A DNA stretch of 64,000 nt from a virus. A program made the position numbers and the translations under genes. The DNA lies in the IMG/VR virus record IMGVR_UViG_3300045988_119396; one strand, 5' to 3'. The notes under the pieces are model-generated. The model saw only the letters and a list, made by a program, of their open reading frames with translations. It did no database searches and was not told where the DNA came from. Every line of letters begins with the position of its first letter. The first letter of the stretch is position 1. Positions 320 through 55,987 of the stretch are shown here, one piece after another.

Positions 320-565
320 ATGATAGACTATATGGAATTATCACTAGATGAAAGAAGAAACTTATACAATGAATGGTGTAAAAATAAAAATAGATTGCTA
401 TTCATGGATGAGTTCGCATACCGTGATTTTAAAAAAGAATTAGACAACGACAACGATGTGTGGGTTATATTTTGTGACGGTTTAGTGCTTGAAATAGTGC
501 CAATGGATAAACTAGATGAAACACTAGAGGATTTAGTGGAATGTGGATATGAATTAGAGGACTAA
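320..565 (+). CDS. hypothetical small acidic protein
   Basis: ATG at 320 lies 6 nt after GGAGGT; track ORF 305..565. Confidence 0.5.
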   Translation: MIDYMELSLDERRNLYNEWCKNKNRLLFMDEFAYRDFKKELDNDNDVWVIFCDGLVLEIVPMDKLDETLEDLVECGYELED

Positions 566-591
566 AAATAAATTTTAGGAGGTACATTACT

Positions 592-858
592 ATGTACGAT
601 AACAAAATAATTTTAGAGGCTACAATTTCATATACAGTTGATAGTGACCATCCAGACTGGCAATACATGAATGAAAAACAACAAAACGGTATAAATAAAT
701 TTAGTGATGATTACTATTTTGACAAGAATTACTATTCAATCAGTGATAAAGATTACATGATTGAACATGCTAAACATGATTTACTGTTGGTTGCTGGTGG
801 TGGATACAATTACGACCACGTACACAATGCAAAATTTAAATTCAAGTTTTATGATTAA
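592..858 (+). CDS. hypothetical protein
   Basis: RBS AGGAGGT upstream; track ORF. Confidence 0.45.
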   Translation: MYDNKIILEATISYTVDSDHPDWQYMNEKQQNGINKFSDDYYFDKNYYSISDKDYMIEHAKHDLLLVAGGGYNYDHVHNAKFKFKFYD

Positions 859-918
859 AAGAATTTTTAGGTAGTAATTTCAGTCAAGAAAAGAATTTAA
901 AGAATAGAGGTAATTAAA

Positions 919-1302
919 ATGAATGCACAAAAAGAAAAATTATATCTATCAAAGCCAGTATATGAAGTAAGAGTACGTTATAAAGGCGGTGGATGGTTTA
1001 GTGGTGATGAATTTAAAAGTGAAAGTTTAGATATAGCAAAAAAGACAGGGCTTGAAAATTATACACGTTGTGGAGCTTGTAACGGTGGATACCTTAAAAT
1101 AGAAAAAATTCAATATATCAACGGTTTAAAATCACTACCAATAAAAGAATTATTAGAATTTGTTGGTAGTGAAAAAGAATTTTTACTCAACAATAAAGTA
1201 ACTATTGAGGAGTATAAAGAAAAATTAGTAGATGACAATAGATTTAGCTACAGGGTAGCACCATCTTTTATAGAAATTGAAAAGAAACATACAAAAAAAT
1301 AA
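919..1302 (+). CDS. hypothetical protein
   Basis: RBS AGAGGTAAT; track ORF. Confidence 0.5.
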   Translation: MNAQKEKLYLSKPVYEVRVRYKGGGWFSGDEFKSESLDIAKKTGLENYTRCGACNGGYLKIEKIQYINGLKSLPIKELLEFVGSEKEFLLNNKVTIEEYKEKLVDDNRFSYRVAPSFIEIEKKHTKK

Positions 1303-1321
1303 ATTTAGTGAGGTAAATATA

Positions 1322-1594
1322 ATGAATAAAAAGAATTTAGCAAAAAAATATTTAATGGATAACGTTGTAATTGACCTTGATTATATTGATGAAATTAAAT
1401 CACAACCTAGAGAACAAATTATATACATGGGTGGGGTCAAACACTGGTATATCAAAACAAAAACTAATTATGAAATTTTACAGAATGCAATCAACTATGC
1501 AAACTATAAAAATAAAATTAGTGATAGAAACTGGCGAACTGTAATTGCATTGTGGCAAGAAGTAGTTTATAGCAAATTAGAAAAGTTAGTGTAA
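1322..1594 (+). CDS. hypothetical protein
   Basis: ATG after GTGAGGTAAAT; inner start of track ORF 1277..1594. Confidence 0.45.
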   Translation: MNKKNLAKKYLMDNVVIDLDYIDEIKSQPREQIIYMGGVKHWYIKTKTNYEILQNAINYANYKNKISDRNWRTVIALWQEVVYSKLEKLV

Positions 1595-1621
1595 AAAAGA
1601 ATTTTTTAGGAGGACTTTATC

Positions 1622-1828
1622 ATGAAAAATAAAATTGAATATGTAGGGTTTACTTATGATATAGATAACATTGATGTTGAATTTATCGTTAATGGTATAA
1701 AAAAGAATTTATACATTAGTGGTAAAGGTGTAGAAGAAATTTTAGACTTTATGGATTATCAAGAAAACGAAGATGTAGATATGATATTAGACAGTTATTT
1801 TGAAACATATAAGCAAGAAATATTTTAA
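1622..1828 (+). CDS. hypothetical protein
   Basis: RBS AGGAGGA; track ORF. Confidence 0.45.
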   Translation: MKNKIEYVGFTYDIDNIDVEFIVNGIKKNLYISGKGVEEILDFMDYQENEDVDMILDSYFETYKQEIF

Positions 1829-1860
1829 CAAAAAAGAATTAATCAAGGGTGGTAATTGGG

Positions 1861-2073
1861 ATGAAAGTAACTTTAAAAAGAAATAATAGCTATGTAGCAA
1901 ACTATGAAGATATGTATTTTAGAGATTGCAAAGTGTTGGTATATAACACTTTATACGACAATATAGACAGTATGGAGGGTGCGAACGAAGAATTAAATTC
2001 AATTAGAAGTTGGGTTGACTTGGTAGACTTTGCAAACTCTCACGGTGGCAAAATGTTTATTGATGAAGATTAA
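1861..2073 (+). CDS. hypothetical protein
   Basis: ATG after GGGTGGTAATTGGG. Confidence 0.45.
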   Translation: MKVTLKRNNSYVANYEDMYFRDCKVLVYNTLYDNIDSMEGANEELNSIRSWVDLVDFANSHGGKMFIDED

Positions 2074-2107
2074 GCTAGAAAAGAATTTTTAAAGGTGGTA
2101 ATTAATC

Positions 2108-2494
2108 ATGAAAAAAATTAACGGTTTAAAAGTAGCTAATGTAATAACAATAATAGGTGTAGTTTGCTTAGGTGTATCTAATCATGAATACATTAAACAA
2201 AATAAGCAACTGAAAAAAGAAAATTTACACCAAGAAAAAGTAATTAAAAAGCAACGTCAAGAATTGACTTATAACGTCAAGAATTTAGACTTGCAAAGTG
2301 GCAGCATACTCAAAACAAGTAAATTTACGCTTGAATACTATGATGATAATAAAAAAGATTTTCACATGGTTATCTATCCTAACGATAAGAATTTAAGAGT
2401 AGTTAGTGAACAAGGTCAAGGTGCAAAGGGTGTAGAAATTGAAAGTGTACCTAGTGAATTTAAAGGCACTACTACAATAATTCAAGAAAAATAA
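2108..2494 (+). CDS. hypothetical protein with N-terminal hydrophobic segment
   Basis: RBS AAGGTGGTAATTAATC; TM-like residues 10-25. Confidence 0.5.
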   Translation: MKKINGLKVANVITIIGVVCLGVSNHEYIKQNKQLKKENLHQEKVIKKQRQELTYNVKNLDLQSGSILKTSKFTLEYYDDNKKDFHMVIYPNDKNLRVVSEQGQGAKGVEIESVPSEFKGTTTIIQEK

Positions 2495-2503
2495 ATTTTA
2501 GTG

Positions 2504-2563
2504 TTGACAAGGAAAAATAAAGAAGTTATAATTCAGTTGTCAAGTTAAGAGTACAGAGAATAA
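2504..2563 (+). promoter_or_regulatory. sigma-A-type promoter (TTGACA-17-TATAAT) with TTGACAA/TTGTCAA inverted repeat, followed by conserved leader GTTAAGAGTACAGAGAATAA
   Basis: -35 at 2504-2509; -10 at 2527-2532; IR at 2504-2510 and 2537-2543; leader motif at 2544-2563 (copy 1 of 6). Confidence 0.6.
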
Positions 2564-2605
2564 CTTGATAGCAAAAAATAAAATAATTTGAAAGAGGTAA
2601 TTATT

Positions 2606-3250
2606 ATGACAAACGAAGAAATTTTTGAAATTATGGGTGATGTGGTTAATGAATGGGGTTTATATATCGAAGATATAAATATATATACCAATGACCTAGA
2701 GGCTACTATTGTAGGTCAATATGATAGTAGAATTTACTACACTTACAACGATATAGATGAATTAGAAGGTAAGTCAGAAAAAGAAATTTTTGCAAGTTTA
2801 GAAAGTCAACTTATGGAAACACTAGAAGATTTTGATGCCGAAGAAGAGTTTGAAAACCTAGACATGAATGACGTAAGCATTTTAGAAAACATGAAACTTG
2901 ACGAAAAAGATTTTAAAGAAACCGTGTGGATGTATGAACAGAAACAGAAAGGTAAAGAAGTGTCAAGTTTTGAAATAGCTTTGACACATGAATTGCAAAA
3001 ACTAGGTCAATTAATGAATGATGAAGTTTATCCTGGTATGGTAGCTAGTTACGCTGTGGATATTTCAAGAGTTAGATGGTCAAATGAAATTTATGAGTAC
3101 ATGAAAGAAAAAAATATTGATATGACAAATGTAGATTATTATGACGTTAATTTCTTTAGCATTGTAAAAAGAGATAGTTTAATAACTGAGTTGTGGACTC
3201 AAGGCAAGAAAGATGAGGCAGTAAAACAATTTCAAAAACACGTATTTTAA
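2606..3250 (+). CDS. hypothetical acidic protein
   Basis: ATG after AGAGGTAATTATT. Confidence 0.5.
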   Translation: MTNEEIFEIMGDVVNEWGLYIEDINIYTNDLEATIVGQYDSRIYYTYNDIDELEGKSEKEIFASLESQLMETLEDFDAEEEFENLDMNDVSILENMKLDEKDFKETVWMYEQKQKGKEVSSFEIALTHELQKLGQLMNDEVYPGMVASYAVDISRVRWSNEIYEYMKEKNIDMTNVDYYDVNFFSIVKRDSLITELWTQGKKDEAVKQFQKHVF

Positions 3251-3288
3251 AGAAATATATATATTTAGAGTCTAGAGAAGAAATAAAA

Positions 3289-3346
3289 AAGGTATCTAGT
3301 CGGTAGAAAGTTTACAACTTGTAAGGTTCGAATCCTTACTACCTTA
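3289..3346 (+). ncRNA. tRNA-like minihelix: acceptor-like stem, AAGTTtacAACTT hairpin, T-arm TAAGG-TTCGAAT-CCTTA
   Basis: Canonical T-loop GGTTCGAATCC. Preceded by TCTAGAGAAGAA as in element 214-269. Followed by palindrome ATCCTAATTAGGAT and AGAAAAATAATTTT. Confidence 0.3.
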
Positions 3347-3395
3347 TATATCCTAATTAGGATAGAAAAATAATTTTATATAGGAGGTATCTATC

Positions 3396-4022
3396 ATGAA
3401 AAAGTTTATAGATACAAACAAAAAAGAATTTTTAGTAAGTGAGAATTTATATCACGTTGACAACTACATTGATGAGTTGAAAAGCAATGGTATTCATGTA
3501 GTAAGTAATGTAGATATTCTTGATTATACAGAGGCTTTAGAAGATATTACTGAGGCTTTTCTTGATATAGTTGATGATTTAGAAGAAGGAAATAATTATT
3601 TCAGACTACCAACTCAAGAAGAATTAATACAAAAGTGGGTAGATAGTGGGTGGAAAGATTTAAACGAGCCATTCGACAAAGAGTTAGCAACTAGCTTTTA
3701 TTATAGTGATTGCATACGTGACGCTTTGAGTGAAGAGCCTTGCGAGTTTCTAAGTTGGTTAGATAGTGAAAGTAGATTTTTCACTTATGAAACAGTAAGT
3801 GAAGGTATGGATTTCTATGACTTAATAGAATATCATCCACTAACCAATGTAGAAAGCGATATGTTGCTAACTTATGATGATGAATTAAGAAAAAATTTAT
3901 TTGATGATTGGTTTTTTGTAGAAGATAAAGAAGGCAACCAAGAAGAATTTAGCTTAGAAAGTTTTCAATCATTAAACATGTATATGTTAAAAAACTACAA
4001 TGCGTTAGAAGTAACTAAGTAA
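3396..4022 (+). CDS. hypothetical acidic protein
   Basis: RBS TAGGAGGT; track ORF. Confidence 0.5.
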   Translation: MKKFIDTNKKEFLVSENLYHVDNYIDELKSNGIHVVSNVDILDYTEALEDITEAFLDIVDDLEEGNNYFRLPTQEELIQKWVDSGWKDLNEPFDKELATSFYYSDCIRDALSEEPCEFLSWLDSESRFFTYETVSEGMDFYDLIEYHPLTNVESDMLLTYDDELRKNLFDDWFFVEDKEGNQEEFSLESFQSLNMYMLKNYNALEVTK

Positions 4023-4084
4023 AGAAAATTTTCTAAGAATTTCAGTAACAAAAAATAATTCAAATTAAAAGGGTGGTAATCAAT

Positions 4085-4282
4085 ATGTACGGACAAGAAT
4101 TTTACGGTGGTTTATTTATGATGAGTTTTGTTGCCTTGGTAATAATTTTGATGGGTAGCTATCATGCTGTTTGTTGGTTGTATAAAAGAAAAAGATTTAT
4201 TTTCAAGCTAATGTTATTCATACCATATACAATTTTGACTTTATTGTTGGTTGGTATCAAAGCATTAAACAATAGAATATAA
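4085..4282 (+). CDS. small membrane protein
   Basis: ATG after GGGTGGTAATCAAT; two hydrophobic helices. Confidence 0.45.
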   Translation: MYGQEFYGGLFMMSFVALVIILMGSYHAVCWLYKRKRFIFKLMLFIPYTILTLLLVGIKALNNRI

Positions 4283-4311
4283 AAAAATAATTATTAAAGG
4301 TGGTAATCAAA

Positions 4312-5139
4312 ATGACAAAAGAATTAGTAGAAACAGTAGTAGTAAAAGTAAATGCAAAAGATTTAGTTAGAAGTTATAAAGAAATTTTAGTACATGTTCA
4401 AAAGAAAGACTTTAGACCAATACTAGCAACAGTTAATCATGTAGTAGAAAACAATAAATTAACTTTAGTTGCTACTGATACACATTCACTAGGCAAGTTC
4501 ACTTTAGATTGTGAAAGTGACAGTGATGTTGAGTTTGCAGTACCTAGAAAAGTAATTCAAGCATTATCTAAGCTAAAAAATAAAGAATTAGTTAATGAAG
4601 AAATTATCCTTGAATTTTCTGATGACAAAATCAATTACATTGTGAATGGTAAGGAATTTATTAGCTCAATGACAGAAAGTAATTATCCAAGTGTTGAAAG
4701 AATTTTACCAGTAGTAAACGAAGATAGAAATATTACGTTCAATATTCGTGAATTAAAAGAATTTATCAAACATATTAAAGAAACTGGCTACCACAGAAAA
4801 GAGTGGAGCAATAAAACAATTCAATCAAATATTAAATTCATCAAAGGTCAATTCGTATTTAGTTATGAATACGAAGATGAAGAAGGTAAGGTATTCTACA
4901 AAAAAGAAAATATTAATTGCAATGTAACTAAGGGGTTCACTGATGATTATGATATTAATCTCAATATCTATGAATTAGAAAGACATGTAAATAAATTCTT
5001 AGTTGGTAACAAAACAATTACATTAGCTTTTGTTGAAAAAGAATTTATGAATAGTCAAAACGTAAGACCAATTCAAGTAACATACAACGGTATGAATAAT
5101 TACATTGGTGTGTTAGCACCAATGCGAGCATTTAAATAG
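4312..5139 (+). CDS. DNA polymerase sliding clamp (beta-clamp-like)
   Basis: N-terminal RPILATVNHVV-TLVATDTHSL and NYPSVERILP resemble DnaN motifs. Start placed at the inner ATG (4312) after RBS GGTGGTAATCAAA. Confidence 0.5.
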   Translation: MTKELVETVVVKVNAKDLVRSYKEILVHVQKKDFRPILATVNHVVENNKLTLVATDTHSLGKFTLDCESDSDVEFAVPRKVIQALSKLKNKELVNEEIILEFSDDKINYIVNGKEFISSMTESNYPSVERILPVVNEDRNITFNIRELKEFIKHIKETGYHRKEWSNKTIQSNIKFIKGQFVFSYEYEDEEGKVFYKKENINCNVTKGFTDDYDINLNIYELERHVNKFLVGNKTITLAFVEKEFMNSQNVRPIQVTYNGMNNYIGVLAPMRAFK

Positions 5140-5211
5140 TAGAAAAATAAAAGAAAAATTAGTTAGAAAATCAATAACAAAAATAATTTAAAAATTAAAG
5201 GGTGGTTAATT

Positions 5212-5601
5212 ATGATGGAAAATAACTTATTTGTAGCACCAATGTTAGGCTGTGGCACTTTAGACTTAAATATCTTTTTTGAAAAATTAGACAATTACGA
5301 AGATACAGTGTTTTTGCATGATGAAGAATTTTCATATCAAAAATTAATAGAAGAAACAAAATTTAGGGCTGGTGATGACTGGAGTTTTAATGACCTAATG
5401 GAAACTTTAGACTACATGGCTGTTGATAGTGCATTAGGTCAAGTAACAAAATCAGAAAAATTTAATGAGTTTGATGACCTAGTACGTGAAAGTATAAACG
5501 GTTGGTATAACTACGCAGATAATAATTTATATTTTGACAATGAAGAAGAATTAGAAAAATTTGATGAATGGAAAGAATTTTCAGAATTATTAGATTTATA
5601 A
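5212..5601 (+). CDS. hypothetical acidic protein
   Basis: RBS GGGTGGTTAATT. Confidence 0.45.
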   Translation: MMENNLFVAPMLGCGTLDLNIFFEKLDNYEDTVFLHDEEFSYQKLIEETKFRAGDDWSFNDLMETLDYMAVDSALGQVTKSEKFNEFDDLVRESINGWYNYADNNLYFDNEEELEKFDEWKEFSELLDL

Positions 5602-6170: not shown

Positions 6171-6238
6171 TAGGGTAATTGGTATAATACAATAAAATAA
6201 TTTATTGCATTTTAAGGTTCGATTCCTTTTTATCCTAT
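6171..6238 (+). ncRNA. tRNA-like element: 7-bp acceptor-like stem (TAGGGTA/TATCCTA), CAATAAAataaTTTATTG hairpin, T-arm AAGG-TTCGATT-CCTT. Overlaps a TGGTATAAT -10-like box
   Basis: Third member of the T-arm element family. Followed by palindrome AGTTTGAAacacaTTCAAACT and AGAAAAATAATTTTAGGAG. Confidence 0.3.
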
Positions 6239-28951: not shown

Positions 28952-29180
28952 TAATGTAGTAACAGTATATACTAAGAATAATTGTCCGCAATGCAAGATA
29001 ACAAAACGTAAGTTGCATATTTTGGGTATTAACTATCATGAACACAATGTAGATGAAGACCCTAAAGCATTAGAATATCTAATAGAAAGAGGCTTGCGTA
29101 GTTTACCTGTTGTAGTTACAGAAGATGATACATGGACTGGGCTACGAATGGATAAGTTAAACAATCTTCAAAAAAGATGA
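28932..29180 (+). CDS. NrdH-like glutaredoxin
   Basis: CPQC redox motif in a thioredoxin-fold-sized protein. Confidence 0.6.
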   Translation: MTTVSTNNVVTVYTKNNCPQCKITKRKLHILGINYHEHNVDEDPKALEYLIERGLRSLPVVVTEDDTWTGLRMDKLNNLQKR

Positions 29181-29199: not shown

Positions 29200-29258
29200 T
29201 TGACTTTTATTTTCTATGTGGTATCATAATATATGTAGTTAAGAGTTAAGAGAATAAA
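29200..29258 (+). promoter_or_regulatory. promoter TTGACT plus TATCATAAT -10, with conserved leader GTTAAGAGTTAAGAGAATAAA (copy 4, left flank of the tnpB island)
   Basis: -35 at 29200-05; -10 about 29222-30; leader at 29238-58. Confidence 0.6.
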
Positions 29259-29970
29259 CGAGCAACTCAAAGCTACAACAAAACAATTAAATAAATCTAT
29301 TATATGCGTTGAGCTTACAAAATGTGTCCTGTTAAGTAAGTCAACAATCGGATAGCTTAATGGCAGAGCGTACGAGTATGATAACGATACTTGTAAGGTT
29401 TGATGTTCAATTCATCAATCCGATATTTGTCACAGTGATTATTTGACAATAATGTTTATTTTGTACTCATGATGAGTACCTCCTTTTATTTAAACTTATT
29501 TTTCTGAATTATGTAGTACGTATACCTAATCACTGTGGCACACCTCCAAGTTAGATTGGTAGGTGGGTAAGATAACGGTATTGCCCATCTACAAAAGAGT
29601 TGGCACTTCTCCTACATAAAATTAGAATTAATGTTTCATTCCAGTCAGCTCTTTTGTAGGTGAACAAAACTTAGTTTGCCTAAACAATTTTCGCAAGTCT
29701 GAAAGGATTTGTACTTTCCAAATTGATGGTGTTCTATGGTTAGTATTTCTCTAGTCTATTTTGTTAATTATTTTAATACTAATTTTAATATCATCTCTTT
29801 AACACTTTTTATTTTTATATTATTTTGTTTTTATCTGAATGTCAGCCCATTAGGGTTGATATATCAGCGAGTAGACGGTTGACTTTTTGATATATTTTTT
29901 ACGACCTCCGATTTTATGCTTGTTTTTTAAGCTACTCGTTGATATATCCATCTTAGTCGGAGGTGTAAGC

Positions 29971-30186: not shown

Positions 30187-30311
30187 TATACATACAACTC
30201 TAAAGCTATAACATATCTTAATTTTTTGCGTGATATGTATCGGCTTACTTTATAAAGTTAGTACAGTATAGAATATAAAATCATTACATCAATTTAGTGA
30301 AGTGAAGCGAG

Positions 30312-31481
30312 GTGAGTAAGATGTTAAAAGGTATTAAATTACGTATATACCCAAATAAGAGACAACGTGAACAGTTGGATATTATGTTTGGTAATAGTCG
30401 TTTTATTTGGAATAATATGTTAGCTACGATGAACGAGCGTTACAAGAATAACAAAGATTTACCTATGTTAACCGAGTATAAATTACATGTTCTACTAAAA
30501 CCTTTGAAAGTTGAATATCCATTCTTGAAAGAGAGTGATAGCACTGCTTTACAAGTAGATTGTCAAAATCTGTATCGAGCGTGGAAGAACTTCTTTAAAT
30601 CTGGTTTTGGTAAGCCTAGATTCAAGTCTAGGAAATTCTACAAGCAATCTTATACAGGTAAGTCGGCACCTAATGTTCATGTAGTAGCTAAAAGATATAT
30701 GAAACTACCTAAGCTAGGCTATATCAAAACTAGCAAAACATTTCAACTCACCGATTGCAAGATTAAACGTTATACGTTAAGTCATGGCACGACTGGTCGT
30801 TATTATTTATCTTTACAGGTAGAATGTGAAAATCAAGCATTGTTACCTAAGACAAATAAATCAGTTGGGTTAGATTTAGGTGTAGCAGATTTAGCTATTT
30901 CTTCTGATGGAATTAAATATGATACATTCCATGTGGGAGATTTAGAACATAAAGCTAACTTGTGGCAACGTAAGTTTTCTAAGCGTAGACATCAAGCTAA
31001 GGTTTGTATCGAAAGTGATAAATACTCAAAAGTATTAGTGCCTAGAGATTTTGATGATTTTAAAAATCTACAAAAGGCTCGAAAGCGCAAAGCGAGATTG
31101 CAAGCTAAGATAGCTAACAAACGTAAAGATTACTTGCATAAATTAACCACTACGTTAGTAAAGCAATACGATACTATCGTTATTGAAGATTTAAAGGCTA
31201 AGAATATGATGAAAAATCATAAACTAGCAAAAGCAATAGCTAACGGTTCATGGTATTTATTCCGTTCTATGTTGGAATATAAGTGTAATTGGTATGGGAA
31301 GCAACTAATAGTAGTTAGTCCTAAATACACTTCACAAGTCTGTTCTAACTGTGGTGTAAATACAGGCAAGAAATCGTTAGATGTTCGTGAGTGGACTTGT
31401 GATAATTGTGGTACACATCACGATAGAGATATTAACGCTGCTAGAAATATCTTGGCTAAAGGATTGAAAGAAGTAGCTTAA
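30312..31481 (+). CDS. tnpB: TnpB (OMEGA RuvC-like RNA-guided nuclease, IS200/IS605 OrfB)
   Basis: RuvC-I GLDLGV, RuvC-II IVIEDL, zinc finger CSNCG...CDNCG, Ruv[14 protein letters not shown]. Confidence 0.85.
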
Positions 31482-31764
31482 ATAAGCGCAAAAGGTACGG
31501 GACGTGCCTCGGTAATATATCTAGGTTCTGTAAGTTAGGCTTAGTCCTAAATACTACCTAGAGTTCCCAGAAACCACCGTTTTTAATAGGTGTGTAGTCC
31601 ATATAAGGCAGCTTGATGGTTGCTAAAGGGAACGGGTTGGTTTTTCACATCCTTTCAATGAATACAGATAATTAACCCCTAATACAACTTACAATACTGA
31701 CACAGTTTTTGTCCCGTTCTCTCTAGGAGCTATCAAAAGCTCTCCCAAAACAAGTCTACTACAT
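31380..31764 (+). ncRNA. candidate TnpB omega-RNA scaffold (overlaps the tnpB 3' end and right end)
   Basis: Structured ORF-free DNA 3' of tnpB. Long-range pairing GGGAACGGG (31627-35) with CCCGTTC (31712-18); right-end-proximal hairpin. Confidence 0.3.
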
Positions 31765-31787
31765 GTTAAGAGTTTAGAGAATAAATG
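31765..31787 (+). promoter_or_regulatory. conserved leader GTTAAGAGTTTAGAGAATAAATG (copy 5, right flank of the tnpB island; no consensus promoter upstream)
   Basis: Identical to the leaders at 13175 and 20845. Confidence 0.5.
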
Positions 31788-31969
31788 GTAGACATTTGGT
31801 ATGTAAGGCAGTAGAAAAATGCTAACACACCACAGCATTTACACTAATCAGACGTCCTTGCATACCACGCTCACAGACTTTGGCGCAACGAGGAATGTGG
31901 GAGCGGATAGCTGAGTCACAGGTGGTGTTGTGACAGAGAGCTATGCGTAATTATTTATCTTAGTTGGTA

Positions 31970-32042
31970 GTCATGTGGTGTATATGTGTAGCACACTCGT
32001 CCTTAACACGAGAGAAGTAGGGTTCAACTCTCTACCATGACA
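31970..32042 (+). ncRNA. tRNA-like (73 nt) with anticodon loop CCTTAAC (anticodon UUA, would read UAA) and degenerate D-arm; possible suppressor-tRNA relic
   Basis: Acceptor 6/7 bp; anticodon stem CTCGT/ACGAG at canonical positions 27-31 and 39-43; T-arm TAGGG-TTCAACT-CTCTA. No GG in the D-loop; C at position 33. Confidence 0.25.
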
Positions 32043-32160
32043 TAGAGGCGAAATGTCTCGAAACAAGCATATCTTGTATGGTGATATACATTGTTATGTA
32101 TTGATTGGTTATTAATCAATCTCATATAAATACTCCTTTTTTTTAAATTATTTTTTTGGT

Positions 32161-32212
32161 TACCGCAGATGTTAAAAGGTGCATTTTACGAGTTCGACTC
32201 TCGATGTGGTAA
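32161..32212 (+). ncRNA. tRNA-like minihelix (acceptor, hairpin, T-arm CGAG-TTCGACT-CTCG)
   Basis: 7-bp acceptor-like stem TACCGCA/TGTGGTA with one G-U. Confidence 0.2.
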
Positions 32213-32363
32213 TTGGGGTAGAGCATGAATGCCCCGAAGCACAATAACGGTAAGTGCGTAGATTTACGTATTTTGCGTGACATTAAAAAGTTAATTCATG
32301 AACAGGTTCATTACGACTTACGTGGTTGGTTCATGAATAAGATTTCCTCCTTTTAAAAAGGTA

Positions 32364-32425
32364 TACGGTGTAGCTCAAATGGTAGAGCAAGGAGGCTGAT
32401 ATGGGTTCGAGTCCCATCACCGTAA
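32364..32425 (+). ncRNA. tRNA-like RNA lacking an anticodon arm
   Basis: Perfect 7-bp acceptor TACGGTG/CACCGTA; canonical D-arm GCTCaaatggtaGAGC; T-arm ATGGG-TTCGAGT-CCCAT. Only 12 nt (AAGGAGGCTGAT) where the anticodon arm should be. Confidence 0.35.
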
Positions 32426-33088
32426 TTTTGTTCTTTGACAATCGTATACTTTACTATTCAAACAGCAATTCAAGCATAACCAGTTGTATAAGGGGTCTAA
32501 TCAACCCTTGCTGGATATGTACCTGTAATTCGTAGTAGATGTAGTCTGAGTGATAGCTTAGACAAGTCGTGAGATGGTTAGTAATATCTATTGAACCTAG
32601 TAAAAGCTAGGACGTAGGGTACGTATGTGGATACATGTGACGTTAGTGTTTCACTGGCTGTTGGCATTAGATAATAGACGCTTACAGTGTGAGAATAACC
32701 CATTGACAGCTTAGTGTGGCAACTAAGTGTTGCGTTGGGAATGCCAAGAATAATGTTTGCCTTGACGCTTAGGAAACTAAGCTATAACAACAGAGGTGAG
32801 AACAAGTAGGGTAATGGCAATATATACAGTTAACTTGTGCATTACAAACGACAGATAAGAGATAATTTTGTAAATATTCTGAATGATAACCTGAAAGTTG
32901 GGATTTACCATAATCGCCACATTTTTAAAAAGCAAAAGGAAGTGATGAGGTAGCTCTTTGTCACTCAGACCTTTTGAGATGTTCACATAATAAACGGTAG
33001 CATGTTGAAGCAGAGTGAAAGCTCATGTTTGAATTGCTATTTGAGTAGTGAAGCATATGATATATCAAAGAACATATAACTATATTTA

Positions 33089-33130
33089 CTCACCTCGGTA
33101 GTTATGTTCTGGTTCAACTCCAGAAGTGAG
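33089..33130 (+). ncRNA. T-arm minihelix (CTCAC...TCTGG-TTCAACT-CCAGA...GTGAG)
   Basis: Same T-arm plus short acceptor architecture as the other elements. Confidence 0.2.
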
Positions 33131-33500
33131 CTTTGTACCAACTCCCGACACACCTCTCATCAAGGCAGTACCGTTATGCGTACTTTAAAGTGGGACGGGT
33201 GCGGTACGGCATCTCGTTAGTACGTTACTCGAGGGTGCGGAAGGTGTTTTGCAAGGGACATACTATGCCAAGCGTGGAGGTTGATTACCTCGCAGCAGAT
33301 AGCTACTGTTGTCATACGTGCGAGCTTGGTGTGTGTAGTTAGGTGTGCCGCCTATTTAGTAAGTTGTCTTAAAGTGGCAAGATAGCTTTTCGATTATAAG
33401 CCCGTTAGCCAGCTATCCCTTCGGTGCAGTGGAGTTACTCGCTAGACTTCGCTAGGGAGCAGATTGCAGAGGCGACTGTGATTTATGCTTGATGGCTGAC
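33130..33500 (+). ncRNA. relatively GC-rich structured non-coding segment of unknown identity
   Basis: No credible ORF. Many inverted repeats, e.g. GATAGCT...AGCTATC at 33383-33418. Composition differs from the flanking AT-rich DNA. Confidence 0.25.
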
Positions 33501-33507
33501 TATTTTT

Positions 33508-33597
33508 GGTAAGTTACTCAAGTTGGTGAAGAGGACAGTTTGCTAAACTGTTAGGTCTGCGATTGTAGACGCAAGGGTTCGAGTCCCTTACTTACCT
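33508..33597 (+). tRNA. tRNA-Ser(GCU), class II with long variable arm
   Basis: Acceptor GGTAAGT/ACTTACC; D-arm CTC-aagttggtgaa-GAG; anticodon stem ACAGT/ACTGT with loop TTGCTAA; variable arm GTCT...AGAC; T-arm AAGGG-TTCGAGT-CCCTT. Confidence 0.65.
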
Positions 33598-33845
33598 TTA
33601 ACAATTAAATATTAAAGTTCGTGTGCATATACAGGAATGATTTCACATTGTCATGTTTACCCTTGCAAGTGAAAACACAAGCAGCGTTACAATTACATAT
33701 TATTGTTTGTCTAGTAATTGATGTAATTGTTCATCGTCAGTTAGCTGTTACTCTGGTTTAAGGTCTATCAATTCTTGTTCGCATTGCTTTATTAGTTCTA
33801 CTTCTGGGAGTTATGTTCTAATCATTCCTGTACATACACACGAAT

Positions 33846-34577
33846 GTGAGAAAGAAGTTGGTTAGTATTATCTATGTAATTGGTAGTATTTCTGCTGGCA
33901 AATCTAGCTTAACGGAGATACTCGCTAAAGATTTAAATAGTACCCCATACTACGAAGATGTAAACAATGGCTTAATCAAAGGCATGTTGGAACATTTTTA
34001 CAGTGCTGGTGCAGAAAGTAGAAAACAAGTTAGTGCTATGTTACAGGTGGCTTTCTTAACGGTTAGATACCAACAATTAAAGAAGGCTATCGTTGAAGAA
34101 AATGCTATATTAGACTCCAATCTAGTAAGCGATTATATCTTAGCACGAAATATATATGAACGAGGGGAAATGGACGAAGACGCTTATAACGTTTACATGA
34201 CATTGAACCAAGAAATGCAATCTAATGTTAATGGTAGTCCTTTTAACGGTTTTCCAGATTTAGTAGTATATATTGATATTGATGAAGAAGCTGAAATTGA
34301 CTCAATACAAGCACGTGGTCGTGATATGGAAGATGTACGTAAAGACCCTAAGTTAGTTGATTATTATCATTCAGTGAATAGAGCATACAAGCGTTGGTAT
34401 GATGGGTTCTACCAAGCACCAGTTGTACGCATTGACCGTTCACAATACGATTTCGTAAACAACCTATCCGACCGTAATGAAGTACTTAATCTAATTGAAC
34501 AAAAGCTAGTTGATTTAGGTAAATTGACGCAAGATGAGTTCGATAAAATCAAAGCAAAACGTGATAAGGAGGTGTAG
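33846..34577 (+). CDS. deoxynucleoside kinase (dAK/dGK/dCK family)
   Basis: P-loop IGSISAGKSSL; DRS/ERS-like region LDSNLVSDYILARNIYERGEMDE. Confidence 0.65.
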   Translation: MRKKLVSIIYVIGSISAGKSSLTEILAKDLNSTPYYEDVNNGLIKGMLEHFYSAGAESRKQVSAMLQVAFLTVRYQQLKKAIVEENAILDSNLVSDYILARNIYERGEMDEDAYNVYMTLNQEMQSNVNGSPFNGFPDLVVYIDIDEEAEIDSIQARGRDMEDVRKDPKLVDYYHSVNRAYKRWYDGFYQAPVVRIDRSQYDFVNNLSDRNEVLNLIEQKLVDLGKLTQDEFDKIKAKRDKEV

Positions 34578-44408: not shown

Positions 44409-44621
44409 GTTTTGTTAAAAAATTCTCGGCACGTATTTAACGGTAGTGCCTATGTCCCATCACGCTCTCAAAAACGTGTGAACTCTCAAATCATGGTTAT
44501 GGGACGGTGTGTTTTTAAGTGACGTAACTTTTAAAACCATGCCTTGTTTTATTAGTTTTCGCAAAGAACAGCTAACTTTGCAACGACCTATCAATCTTTT
44601 ACAATTAATAGACCCAGTGCG

Positions 44622-53897: not shown

Positions 53898-54809
53898 CTA
53901 ATTATTATAGTGGGACTTAGTTAATTCTAAGTCAGCTCGCTGTAATGTTGTCCATGCTCCATACTGAAATTTAGCTTGAGGGAAAGCTAAAAATAGTCTT
54001 CTTCTTAGAATGTTCATGAAAGTCGCACCTTTATAAGACTTGTTGACTTTCTTTTTATCCTTACACCATTTAGCTAAAATTCCAGTTTGGTGATTTTTAG
54101 TTGTGTGGCAATTAGAACATACTGTAATTAGATTATTTACAGTGTTAGTTCCACCTAAAGAACGGTAGATAATATGGTGGATTTTGAGTTTACCACCTTT
54201 TTTCTTACATACTTGACAAGTATAGTTATCTCTAGCTAAAACAAATTGTTTAACAGTTTGATAGCCGTATAAATCACCTTGCTGATAACCCTCACCATTT
54301 ATTTCTGGATTTTTCATTTTTTGAATATCAAACTTACCTACTTCGATATGTAAATCAGCTTTAGGTAAGACTGATAATAAACGCTTTATCCAGTTGATAT
54401 TATGGTTAACTTTACTTAATACCGAAGGCGGTAGCCAGTTATCTTTTTTCTTAGCTATACGATTTAAAAATTTAGCTTTACGATAACGTGTTTTACGGTT
54501 ACGTCTACTTCTACGATATATTCTTCTAGTATCTATTAGCTTTTTGACATCTTGTCTTAACTCTACTTCGCCTTGAAATAAGACTTTATCTTGGCTTGTA
54601 ACAGCTAGTCCAATATGTCTTTGACCGCTATCAATACCAATACTTATATCCTGTTTATAACCAGTTGAACCATATAAGAGCTGAATGGTAAAAGGTTCTT
54701 TTTTAAGTACCTTAGCTTTACCATCTCTTAACAAAATTCTAGCTTTTCTAGGCTTACATGGCATTAACGCTTTACCATGTTTGTTAATCACAAAAACTCG
54801 GTTTTGCAT
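53898..54809 (-). CDS. iscB: IscB-like OMEGA nuclease (PLMP, RuvC-I, Arg-rich bridge helix, RuvC-II, HNH); terminates inside the expected RuvC-III motif
   Basis: ALMPCKPRKARILL; GIDSGQRHIGLAV; RRSRRNRKTRYRKAKFLNR; IHIEVGKFD; HNH CQVCKKKGGKLKIHHI...CSNCH; ends ...LELTKSHYNN*. Start taken at the second Met (54809), after GGAG. Confidence 0.65.
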   Translation of the reverse strand: MQNRVFVINKHGKALMPCKPRKARILLRDGKAKVLKKEPFTIQLLYGSTGYKQDISIGIDSGQRHIGLAVTSQDKVLFQGEVELRQDVKKLIDTRRIYRRSRRNRKTRYRKAKFLNRIAKKKDNWLPPSVLSKVNHNINWIKRLLSVLPKADLHIEVGKFDIQKMKNPEINGEGYQQGDLYGYQTVKQFVLARDNYTCQVCKKKGGKLKIHHIIYRSLGGTNTVNNLITVCSNCHTTKNHQTGILAKWCKDKKKVNKSYKGATFMNILRRRLFLAFPQAKFQYGAWTTLQRADLELTKSHYNN

Positions 54810-55045
54810 AATTTGTACTCCTTTCATTTTTTATAAGGTACTAACGACCTTATCACGTATTTATCAGAGTTAATAAATACATGTAGTTACCCTTCGACAA
54901 TGTTATTTCAGCTTATAAACAAGGTTGACTAGCACATTAACCTTATGCTTGTTTACAGAGCCTCCATAGTGCTAGAAACTAGGGTATCATTTCTAGGTAT
55001 GTTCACTGAAATAACGTAGTTCTCTAAGAACTTAGTCTAGACAAC
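54810..55045 (-). ncRNA. candidate IscB omega-RNA / structured 5' leader
   Basis: About 235-nt ORF-free region directly upstream of iscB. Minus-strand hairpins CTAGAAAtgataccctagTTTCTAG, CTAAGttCTTAG, ATAAGGTcgttagtACCTTAT. Confidence 0.3.
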
Positions 55046-55075
55046 AAAATTATTAAGTTACCTACTTTAGTAGGT
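55036..55075 (-). terminator. rho-independent terminator (minus strand) ACCTACtaaaGTAGGT plus T-rich tail
   Basis: Follows the stop of the 55078..55575 gene. Confidence 0.45.
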
Positions 55076-55077
55076 GG

Positions 55078-55575
55078 TTACTGTTGACCCTTCTTAGTCA
55101 TTTCTTCCAAAGCGTCTTGCCACTTATATTCCACATCTTCCTTGATAATAGGGTTAGTTTTCTTCGTCAGACCAACAACCTTAACCCTAAAGTCATGAAC
55201 ACGAGGAACTACAATCTCAACAGGAATACCATATTGCTTAGCAAACATCTTAAATCTTAATTGTGCTGCTGGGTCAATATTGTATGTTGAGTTAAACCCT
55301 GTCTTGACGTCATAAACATGCAGCAAGTTACCATCTTCATCTCTTATCACAACATCTGGTGTGTAATTAGCACTTCTCAAACGCAGACCATTGTGTAATT
55401 CCACCATAGGTTGTATTGTAAAAGACTCGTGTACGGTAGCATTTAAATCTCTACCATAAATAAATCGCTCATAAAACTTAGCTTCTTTTTCAGAGTCAAA
55501 TTTCAGACCATTAAATTCAACTTTCTTACCAAAGTAAGTTGTTCTACCTCTATTAATTCTAGTTTTGCACCTCAC
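55078..55575 (-). CDS. DUF1064-like phage protein (putative nuclease)
   Basis: KFDSEKEAKFYERF...PDVVIRDEDGNLLHVYDVKT pattern, from recalled family features. Confidence 0.4.
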   Translation of the reverse strand: MRCKTRINRGRTTYFGKKVEFNGLKFDSEKEAKFYERFIYGRDLNATVHESFTIQPMVELHNGLRLRSANYTPDVVIRDEDGNLLHVYDVKTGFNSTYNIDPAAQLRFKMFAKQYGIPVEIVVPRVHDFRVKVVGLTKKTNPIIKEDVEYKWQDALEEMTKKGQQ

Positions 55576-55670: not shown

Positions 55671-55712
55671 AAAAAAACCTCGCAGCAGAAAGCTACGAGG
55701 TCAAAAAGGTTT
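55671..55712. terminator. bidirectional terminator A7-CCTCG...CGAGG-TCAAAAAGGTTT
   Basis: Hairpin flanked by an A-run and a T-run. Confidence 0.55.
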
Positions 55713-55732
55713 ACAGTGTGTTATAATGTATT

Positions 55733-55987
55733 GTGGCGAAAGTTATAAAGACGGTGGCTGACTTATTAGAAAGTGTGGTGTTGCCTATGCAATGCGAAAC
55801 TAACGAAAGGAAAGCCATTTGTGTCTGTCTATCAAGCCTTGATGTTGATGTTAACATTCGGTGTGTTTCTGTTAGCATTACTGACATACATCAGCAAAAA
55901 GTAAGCAACTTTGTTGTGACGATAGTAGATACAGTAAAACCGTCCGATTGTAACTTTGGCGAGTTCGTGGACGGTTGCTGTATGTGA
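55733..55987 (+). CDS. small Cys-rich ORF inside a promoter-to-terminator unit; may be non-coding
   Basis: TGtTATAAT at 55719-27 lies only 5 nt before the GTG start. Terminator CATGCttcgGCATG plus TTTTT at 56031-56060. Confidence 0.25.
   Translation: MAKVIKTVADLLESVVLPMQCETNERKAICVCLSSLDVDVNIRCVSVSITDIHQQKVSNFVVTIVDTVKPSDCNFGEFVDGCCM

Follow-up and report, generated by a model that had tools for sequence, protein, structure and literature searches.

In this study we have analysed a 64,000-nucleotide (nt) stretch of viral DNA (IMG/VR record IMGVR_UViG_3300045988_119396, called the window below) and found that its positions 31482-33845 are a non-coding RNA island, on the + strand like the flanking genes, of a Herelleviridae-like Ligilactobacillus salivarius phage. 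The island combines an RNA of the ROOL family, a GC-rich candidate RNA and a series of transfer RNA (tRNA) genes and truncated tRNA-like elements, and we lean towards the reading that it yields a single transcript punctuated by these tRNA and tRNA-like modules, at which RNase P and RNase Z would cut and thereby free ROOL and its neighbours. The parts follow one another in the order TnpB tail, leader, tRNA with anticodon UUA, two truncated tRNA-likes, ROOL, a third truncated tRNA-like, GC-rich RNA and tRNA-Ser(GCU). A first-pass annotation of the DNA had described the region as a non-coding island without a credible open reading frame (ORF), containing tRNA-like elements. Indeed, none of its ORFs exceeds 69 amino acids, and the listed elements are present where that annotation placed them. 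The picture of an otherwise empty island does not stand, since about a quarter of the region is ROOL, a described RNA family that had been overlooked, and since the left edge belongs to a transposon.

The ROOL RNA occupies 32456-33043 (+, 588 nt) and is full length, matching positions 1-574 of 574 of the Rfam model RF03087 with 245.5 bits against a gathering score of 99.1 (E = 1e-54). It lies in a genome with phage-type replication genes and has tRNAs or tRNA-likes at less than 500 nt on both sides. ROOL is an ornate RNA family of about 580 nt that occurs in phages and prophages, "often near tRNA islands" (PMC5737381, PMC12286853); other members have been found by cryo-EM to form homo-oligomeric cages, and their function is unknown (PMC12286853, PMC12990946). 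ROOL next to phage tRNAs is already described, and the ROOL of the window is a new member of the family, which shares 79% identity with the copy carried by a 166-kb replicon of L. salivarius (locus L042) and 93% with that of L070, a Logan contig located through its identical deoxynucleoside kinase (dNK). L070 has the same arrangement as the window and is 92% identical to it across 32420-33639. For comparison, 22 ROOL loci were gathered from IMG/VR by pattern, and 19 of them were scanned for flanking tRNAs. In one lineage, comprising 12 loci, a tRNA-Thr ends 18-21 nt before ROOL; in two other loci (L056 and L060) a tRNA-Gln(UUG) ends 20-23 nt before ROOL and a tRNA-Gln(CUG) begins 19 nt after it; and in a further two (L053 and L065) a tRNA-Gln begins 23-24 nt after it. 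Up to 14 intact tRNAs surround ROOL in other ROOL-bearing phage contigs. In the window, the places of these canonical tRNAs are held by truncated tRNA-likes, one ending 30 nt ahead of ROOL and the other starting 45 nt behind it.

The structure of these truncated elements can be followed in three sibling genomes, namely L001 and L002, two 127-kb IMG/VR viral genomes whose dNKs are 96-97% identical to that of the window, and L004, a 129,218-bp IMG/VR viral genome whose dNK is 60% identical. The element before ROOL (32364-32425, +, 62 nt) is a tRNA-like, not a tRNA: it has a 7-base-pair acceptor stem, a D arm with GG and a T arm with UUCGAGU, and in place of the anticodon arm there is an 11-nt linker, AGGAGGCUGAU. 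It scores 48.3 bits on the Rfam tRNA model, with 7 nt where the model has 17, and receives no ARAGORN call, in agreement with the earlier description of a tRNA shape without an anticodon arm. Its orthologues lie at 7970-8029 in L002 and 7391-7450 in L004, and across them acceptor pairs 2:71, 4:69, 5:68 and 6:67 as well as the first T-stem pair are compensated, the terminal pair 1:72 alone being lost; the D arm and D loop are unchanged, and so is the T loop except for one base in L002. The two shorter elements, which the first-pass annotation had called T-arm minihelices, fold as claimed and are conserved in the relatives. The upstream one (minihelix a, 32161-32212, +) consists of an acceptor stem, a short hairpin and a T arm, without an anticodon arm. 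Its T stem reads CGAG/CUCG in the window and UAGG/CCUA in L004, which amounts to two compensated pairs, and changes in its acceptor stem are preserved through G-U pairs. The one after ROOL (minihelix b, 33089-33130, +) has a 5-base-pair acceptor stem, a D-loop remnant UCGGUAG and a 6-base-pair T arm; it is kept in L001 and L004, with the acceptor changes in L001 forming G-U pairs. In both folds and covariation the modules present a stacked acceptor stem and T arm, with a D-loop/T-loop elbow where a D arm exists, and the D-loop GG and the T-loop UUCGA are conserved in the lineage of the window. The five compensated pairs of the 62-nt element, the two of minihelix a and the wobble-preserving changes of minihelix b suggest that the structure of the truncated tRNA-likes is under selection rather than in decay.

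Elements of this kind are not confined to the island. The window contains 11 copies of the T-loop motif GTTCRANTC, where shuffles give 3.9 +/- 2.1; five of them lie inside 31482-33845 and one at 29405, and all are on the + strand. When IMG/VR was scanned for the pattern of arm-less tRNA-likes, 35 stretches were returned, many with intact acceptor stems and several with Rfam "tRNA" matches of 58-66 nt. In an alignment of 11 such arm-less elements, 98.3% of the cells are paired and 12 of 16 pairs covary, figures that have to be read with the fact that members were partly chosen for their tRNA-likeness; for this reason the compensation within the lineage is the stronger argument.

Several further tRNA-like observations stand beside these results. 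A tRNA-like at 29347-29425 (+), in the upstream half of the island and outside 31482-33845, scores 35.5 bits on the Rfam tRNA model, has a 9-base-pair anticodon stem and a fold z score of -3.3, and its orthologues in L002 and L004 score 29-32 bits. It is preceded by a promoter-like site with an extended -10 (TTGACT-16-TATCAT after TG) and followed by a terminator-like hairpin with a T run (29463-29489), so that 29200-29489 (+) looks like a self-contained small-RNA gene, as judged from these signals. Weak tRNA-like stumps at 3289-3346 and 6181-6237 (+), each an acceptor stem and a T arm with UUCGAAU and UUCGAUU, respectively, occur between protein genes, in intergenic gaps and on the gene strand, and may be elements of mRNA processing or stability. 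In unrelated viral contigs, an arm-less tRNA-like of about 60 nt and a minihelix of about 49-58 nt stand in tandem, and Rfam reads the pair as one 121-nt "tRNA" (L006 4857-4977; L012 12523-12644, -; L019 7423-7544; L020 754-875, -). Within window positions 32343-32403, an invariant sequence resembling the 3' end of 16S rRNA, UUUCCUCCUUUU, lies 12 nt before the 62-nt tRNA-like, and the linker of this element, AAGGAGG in the window and AAAGGA in L002 and L004, is complementary to it in both forms. With an ATG 5 nt on, the linker of the window resembles a strong ribosome-binding site; a coding role for AAGGAGG-N5-ATG (44-amino-acid ORF, 32401-32535) was rejected, as neither the motif nor the ORF is conserved in L002 and L004.

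Between minihelix b and tRNA-Ser lies the GC-rich stretch (33131-33507, +), which is a probable structured RNA of an undescribed class, about 380-430 nt long across its orthologues in L001, L004 and L070. The first-pass annotation had rightly noticed its composition (47-50% GC in 33100-33500 against about 33% around it) and had also called it dense in inverted repeats, a claim that folding energy does not support, as neither strand does better than its shuffles (+ strand, z = -0.14; - strand, z = -0.08). We have therefore dropped the inverted-repeat argument and used covariation. The consensus of the four sequences has 104 pairs, of which 98.5% are paired, and contains 13 compensated pairs against 5.9 +/- 1.7 in shuffles (0/500) and 0-2 in slid controls, although the structure was derived from the same four closely related sequences in which the covariation was counted. 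In one helix, formed by strands some 85 nt apart, two neighbouring pairs are compensated, and one hairpin region exists in three versions differing in length. That the stretch might be a known ribozyme or intron, which the annotation had named as an outcome that would reclassify it, was not borne out: a search of 31300-34000 returned no Rfam match to 33131-33507 at E <= 1, including intron, RNase P, tmRNA and GOLLD models, and the Rfam family match fell elsewhere, on ROOL. Outside this phage group no homologues were found in GenBank phages or PLSDB plasmids (blastn), and exact 21-mer searches of IMG/VR, nhmmer searches of the fetched loci and 20-mer searches of 185,579 species genomes returned only the same group.

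It could be argued that this stretch is no RNA gene but conserved DNA, such as a remnant of mobile DNA or a protein-binding region, with helices that come from fitting four similar sequences. The unremarkable folding energy, the small number of closely related sequences and the lack of homologues elsewhere in the collections searched all agree with this explanation. The excess of compensated pairs over both kinds of control, with two of them adjacent in a helix of distant strands, and the exchange of a variable region among three lengths speak against it; so does the fact that the stretch contains no ORF above 69 amino acids. Its boundaries, moreover, coincide exactly with tRNA-like modules on both sides: no nucleotide separates its start from minihelix b, and its end meets the first base of tRNA-Ser. 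Taken together, we regard the conserved-DNA explanation as somewhat improbable and continue to treat 33131-33507 as a candidate structured RNA.

Another finding from the comparison is that the place of ROOL is polymorphic. L002 and L004 carry a TnpB cassette instead of ROOL in the interval from the 62-nt tRNA-like to minihelix b, and L001, whose contig starts inside the array, probably does so too. The cassette consists of a 418-amino-acid TnpB, an omega-like scaffold and a mini-array of 3-4 copies of a 29-nt repeat, GTGTTACCCATATGTRCGTGGGGACAGAC, with a period of 61-63 nt (L004 7497-9151; L002 8076-9738; L001 7-157). It resembles a phage-borne transposon-to-CRISPR intermediate, a concept that has been reviewed (PMC13565253). 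The degenerate last repeat of the siblings (L004 9121-9151, the fourth copy) aligns with window positions 33052-33078 (+), and the window thus keeps a relic of the array beside ROOL. In L002 and L004 the TnpB element abuts a tRNA-like; tRNA-likes as targets of TnpB insertion were nevertheless rejected, since the TnpB insertion of the window adjoins none.

A parallel arrangement is found in L042, a locus of the 166-kb replicon NZ_CP123973.1 of L. salivarius ZSA5 (record 102626-109227; features at locus positions 560-5472). Here ROOL lies between a 484-amino-acid TnpB, whose ORF ends within a tRNA-like, and a 418-amino-acid TnpB. The locus has four omega/tracr-like scaffolds, and behind three of them comes a CRISPR-like array whose 36-nt repeats have a period of 66 nt and number 10 copies in total. 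An arm-less tRNA-like or minihelix (about 571-619, 897-958 and 2594-2654) immediately precedes three of the scaffolds, two of these tRNA-likes scoring 52 and 48 bits on the Rfam tRNA model, and the fourth scaffold starts right after ROOL. The guide-scaffold pattern of L042 had no matches in species genomes or other plasmids. By analogy, this parallel supports a general processing role for the tRNA-likes.

How would such a role operate? In the reading that we prefer, the array would be transcribed as one long precursor in which tRNA and tRNA-like modules serve as punctuation. RNase P would cut at the 5' ends of the modules and RNase Z just after the discriminator, the latter because none of the tRNAs or tRNA-likes of the island encodes CCA, and the cuts would set both ROOL and the GC-rich RNA free with defined ends. 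What RNase P, RNase Z and the CCA-adding enzyme recognise in a tRNA is its acceptor/T-arm half and its elbow, not its anticodon arm. The modules have kept precisely this "top half", the 62-nt element also its D-loop/T-loop elbow, while the decoding parts are gone. Processing is further implied by the promoter of L. salivarius ROOL, which has been mapped 225-450 nt upstream of the mature RNA (PMC5643018). A scan found no terminator-like site in the array and no promoter-like site of at least 9/12 directly before ROOL. The first-pass annotation had already offered RNase P and RNase Z processing signals among several possible roles; this idea best fits the new evidence, that is, the compensated stems, the lack of encoded CCA and the canonical-tRNA places near ROOL, while the cleavage itself is something we infer.

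Several observations weigh against this reading. The sites returned by the promoter and terminator scan are no more than expected by chance, so its silence is weak evidence. The gaps between the modules and ROOL in the window (30 and 45 nt) exceed the 18-24 nt seen with canonical tRNAs. Neither a flanking tRNA nor an arm-less tRNA-like was found at the ROOL ends of L048, L049 and L069, and L042 has none directly at its ROOL ends, from which we conclude that flanking tRNAs are common with ROOL, not required. The siblings keep the 62-nt tRNA-like although a TnpB element, not ROOL, comes next, and the role of this element cannot therefore be specific to ROOL. Finally, the wholesale change of the acceptor stem might have come about by substitution with a paralogue and not by stepwise compensation.

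The remaining tRNAs of the island bear on whether the modules are simply decaying. The tRNA-Ser(GCU) that had been annotated at 33508-33597 (+) is a class II tRNA with a complete cloverleaf including the anticodon arm, called by ARAGORN, scoring 57 bits on the Rfam tRNA model and aligned with its relatives; at the discriminator (33597) the window has U, whereas L001 and L004 have G. The 73-nt tRNA with anticodon UUA, of the ochre-reading type (31970-32042, +), was likewise recovered, as "tRNA-Stop tta" by ARAGORN and with only 32.3 Rfam bits. Its anticodon is complementary to a stop codon, and there is a mismatch at the base of its acceptor stem. The anticodon of its orthologue is tta in L002 and ttg (tRNA-Gln) in L004, and the latter identifies it as a variant of tRNA-Gln(UUG) with a G36A change; between relatives one acceptor pair is compensated (G-C to A-U). 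Recoding of stop codons by this tRNA is ruled out by stop usage, as TAA terminates 40 of the 70 window ORFs of at least 100 amino acids and ORF lengths are normal under the standard code, which the phage uses. An efficient suppressor is also unlikely, because with TAA as the main stop the phage would harm its own genes.

These features could mean that the truncated tRNA-likes and tRNA(UUA) are pseudogenes, the functionless and decaying remains of a larger phage tRNA array. Such an origin would agree with the many intact tRNAs around ROOL in other contigs, where this lineage has one intact and several damaged, with the low score of tRNA(UUA) and its poor prospects as a suppressor, and with an island that is a hotspot of insertions and replacements. 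Neutral decay would, however, break pairs, whereas the stems here have been upheld by compensated changes at about 22% sequence divergence. The near-complete invariance of the D and T loops of the 62-nt element points the same way, as does the recurrence of arm-less elements with intact acceptor stems in unrelated viral contigs. We consider the neutral-pseudogene explanation unlikely and disfavoured, above all because the stem changes are compensated. Quite unlikely, in our view, is the suggestion that the arm-less tRNA-likes are decoys for host enzymes, such as the CCA-adding enzyme and EF-Tu that the first-pass annotation had named, or for acceptor-end defence toxins, or else cargo of the ROOL cage like the tRNAs embedded in GOLLD: an intact elbow and acceptor stem without decoding capacity does fit a mimic, and published models of ROOL and GOLLD cages consider tRNA cargo, GOLLD being able to carry covalently linked tRNAs (PMC12286853, PMC12990946), but nothing here ties the elements to a defence system, the siblings retain the 62-nt tRNA-like without ROOL, and the same kind of element precedes the L042 scaffolds and sits in ordinary intergenic gaps, which general processing explains better than a ROOL-specific role.

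Punctuation of transcripts by tRNAs has several precedents, including the mitochondrial punctuation model, MALAT1/mascRNA and synthetic polycistronic tRNA-guide-RNA arrays. In these, too, tRNA-shaped modules, some without a working anticodon arm, stand between RNAs for excision by RNase P and RNase Z; they differ from our case in being eukaryotic, organellar or engineered, while the modules of the window are predicted cut sites. L042 resembles a natural version of the engineered arrays. Compared with the ROOL RNAs known from phage and prophage tRNA islands (PMC5737381, PMC12286853), that of the window is alike in its full-length match, its phage-borne location on the gene strand and its position beside tRNAs. 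It is unlike them in that its immediate neighbours are truncated tRNA-likes instead of canonical tRNAs, and in that the same slot holds TnpB and a CRISPR-like mini-array in sibling genomes. GOLLD offers another comparison, being likewise large, ornate, phage-borne and physically linked to tRNA genes, with which it is probably co-transcribed (PMC12286853, PMC12990946); its tRNAs are adjacent or embedded, whereas the tRNA-likes of the window flank the large RNA, and neither a sequence nor a model match to GOLLD was found in 31300-34000. Phage K, of the same virus family Herelleviridae, produces abundant long non-coding RNAs of unknown function next to tRNA genes, which the authors likened to ROOL and GOLLD; unlike the RNA of the window, they are not ROOL members as far as that report states (PMC9241854).

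Our literature search found no description of the tRNA-like/ROOL arrangement, of the bracketed GC-rich RNA or of an exchange between ROOL and TnpB in one slot. Three features thus appear new: anticodon-less tRNA-likes and minihelices in tRNA places around ROOL with their structure kept by selection, a GC-rich RNA bracketed by tRNA-like modules, and the exchange of ROOL and a TnpB/CRISPR-like cassette in one slot. A bolder proposal, to which we give only tentative credence, is that in this phage lineage, and in further mobile DNA of L. salivarius, tRNA genes have become dedicated anticodon-less "cut here" modules of a multi-RNA operon, which would free ROOL, a new RNA class of about 380 nt partnered with ROOL and, in relatives and on a host replicon, TnpB guide scaffolds and CRISPR-like arrays. 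If true, this would be a natural counterpart of the engineered tRNA-guide-RNA arrays. ROOL is among the largest bacterial and phage RNAs of unknown function, its cage structure having been solved, and the locus gives a testable account of its production, by excision from a tRNA-punctuated precursor. Near-identical phages whose shared slot is occupied by ROOL in some and by a TnpB/CRISPR-like cassette in others are natural comparison genomes, and the GC-rich neighbour may act together with ROOL. Truncated tRNA-likes kept in shape by selection would add a case from bacterial viruses to the few tRNA-shaped RNAs used outside decoding, and tRNA-likes before TnpB guide scaffolds hint at how the guide RNAs of transposon-to-CRISPR intermediates gain their 5' ends.

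The left part of the island has a separate history. A TnpB-only insertion of the IS200/IS605 type occupies 30195-31602 (+), with its tnpB ORF at 30312-31481 and its right end at 31482-31602. The ORF carries the Pfam domains OrfB_IS605 (PF01385), Cas12f1-like_TNB (PF07282) and HTH_OrfB_IS605 (PF12323), that is, the RuvC-type OrfB and zinc-ribbon domains of an IS200/IS605 TnpB. The segment 30195-31602 is absent from L002 and L004, where both flanks align and homology passes directly from 30194 to 31603; the element thus behaves as a discrete mobile unit, which one of these otherwise collinear genomes has and the others lack. Because 30195-31602 is an insertion, the first 121 nt of the region (31482-31602) are the right end of the TnpB element and not native island. 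Lying 3' of tnpB, they are presumably the place where the omega-RNA is encoded. They contain a scaffold motif, AGAGTTCCCARRAA, which is common to the four omega/tracr-like, TnpB-linked scaffolds of L042, and 31482-31602 is accordingly a predicted omega-RNA scaffold and right end of a TnpB element that arrived later. The position of these 121 nt after the tnpB stop, inside the insertion, and the common motif agree with the omega-RNAs of IS200/IS605 elements; in contrast to those, the element of the window has no TnpA, and its predicted omega-RNA is without an Rfam model. No further copies of the element were found in plasmids. Before the insertion, the island extended from an nrdH-like gene (ending at 29180) to dNK (starting at 33846), was thus larger than 31482-33845 and was interrupted only by one small conserved membrane-protein ORF. 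Genome comparison marks it as a hotspot of insertions and replacements. To the right of the TnpB element, a conserved non-coding leader (31603-31969, +) with hairpins of variable tips, such as 31798-31866, ends at the 5' end of tRNA(UUA). RNAalifold identified five compensated pairs in this leader, including GG/CC to AA/UU in hairpin 31798-31866, and the segment 31603-32416 as a whole is 76-79% identical to L002 and L004.

The gene content of the window, with DnaB-like and RecD2-like helicases, the DNA polymerase III alpha subunit, an ATP-dependent DNA ligase, dNK and a nucleoside deoxyribosyltransferase, and a dNK that shares 63% identity with its counterpart in Lactobacillus brevis phage 3-521 (Herelleviridae, Watanabevirus) point to a large Herelleviridae-like phage or phage-plasmid. 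L004 and the "plasmid" pMP1046B of L. salivarius JCM1046 are one and the same molecule, so the host is very probably L. salivarius. In GenBank phages (blastn), similarity to the island is limited to tRNA-Ser. A metagenome scan with the dNK protein for further related islands gave nothing useful. A search for dNK homologues gave many, on contigs that have ORFs directly upstream and no island, and the one contig found to encode the dNK of the window itself was L070.

Beyond the island, an IscB-like ORF of 309 amino acids with RRXRR and HNH domains lies at 53898-55088 (-), and a HEARO RNA (RF02033, 116 bits) stands immediately upstream of it on the same strand; together they are a second mobile element of the RNA-guided-nuclease type in the window. 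Two further RNAs score above the Rfam threshold, the Listeria sRNA rli28 at 55712-55891 (+, 66.8 bits) and the salivarius-1 RNA at 44452-44505 (-, 50.6 bits), the latter with a counterpart at the corresponding position of L001, L002 and L004.

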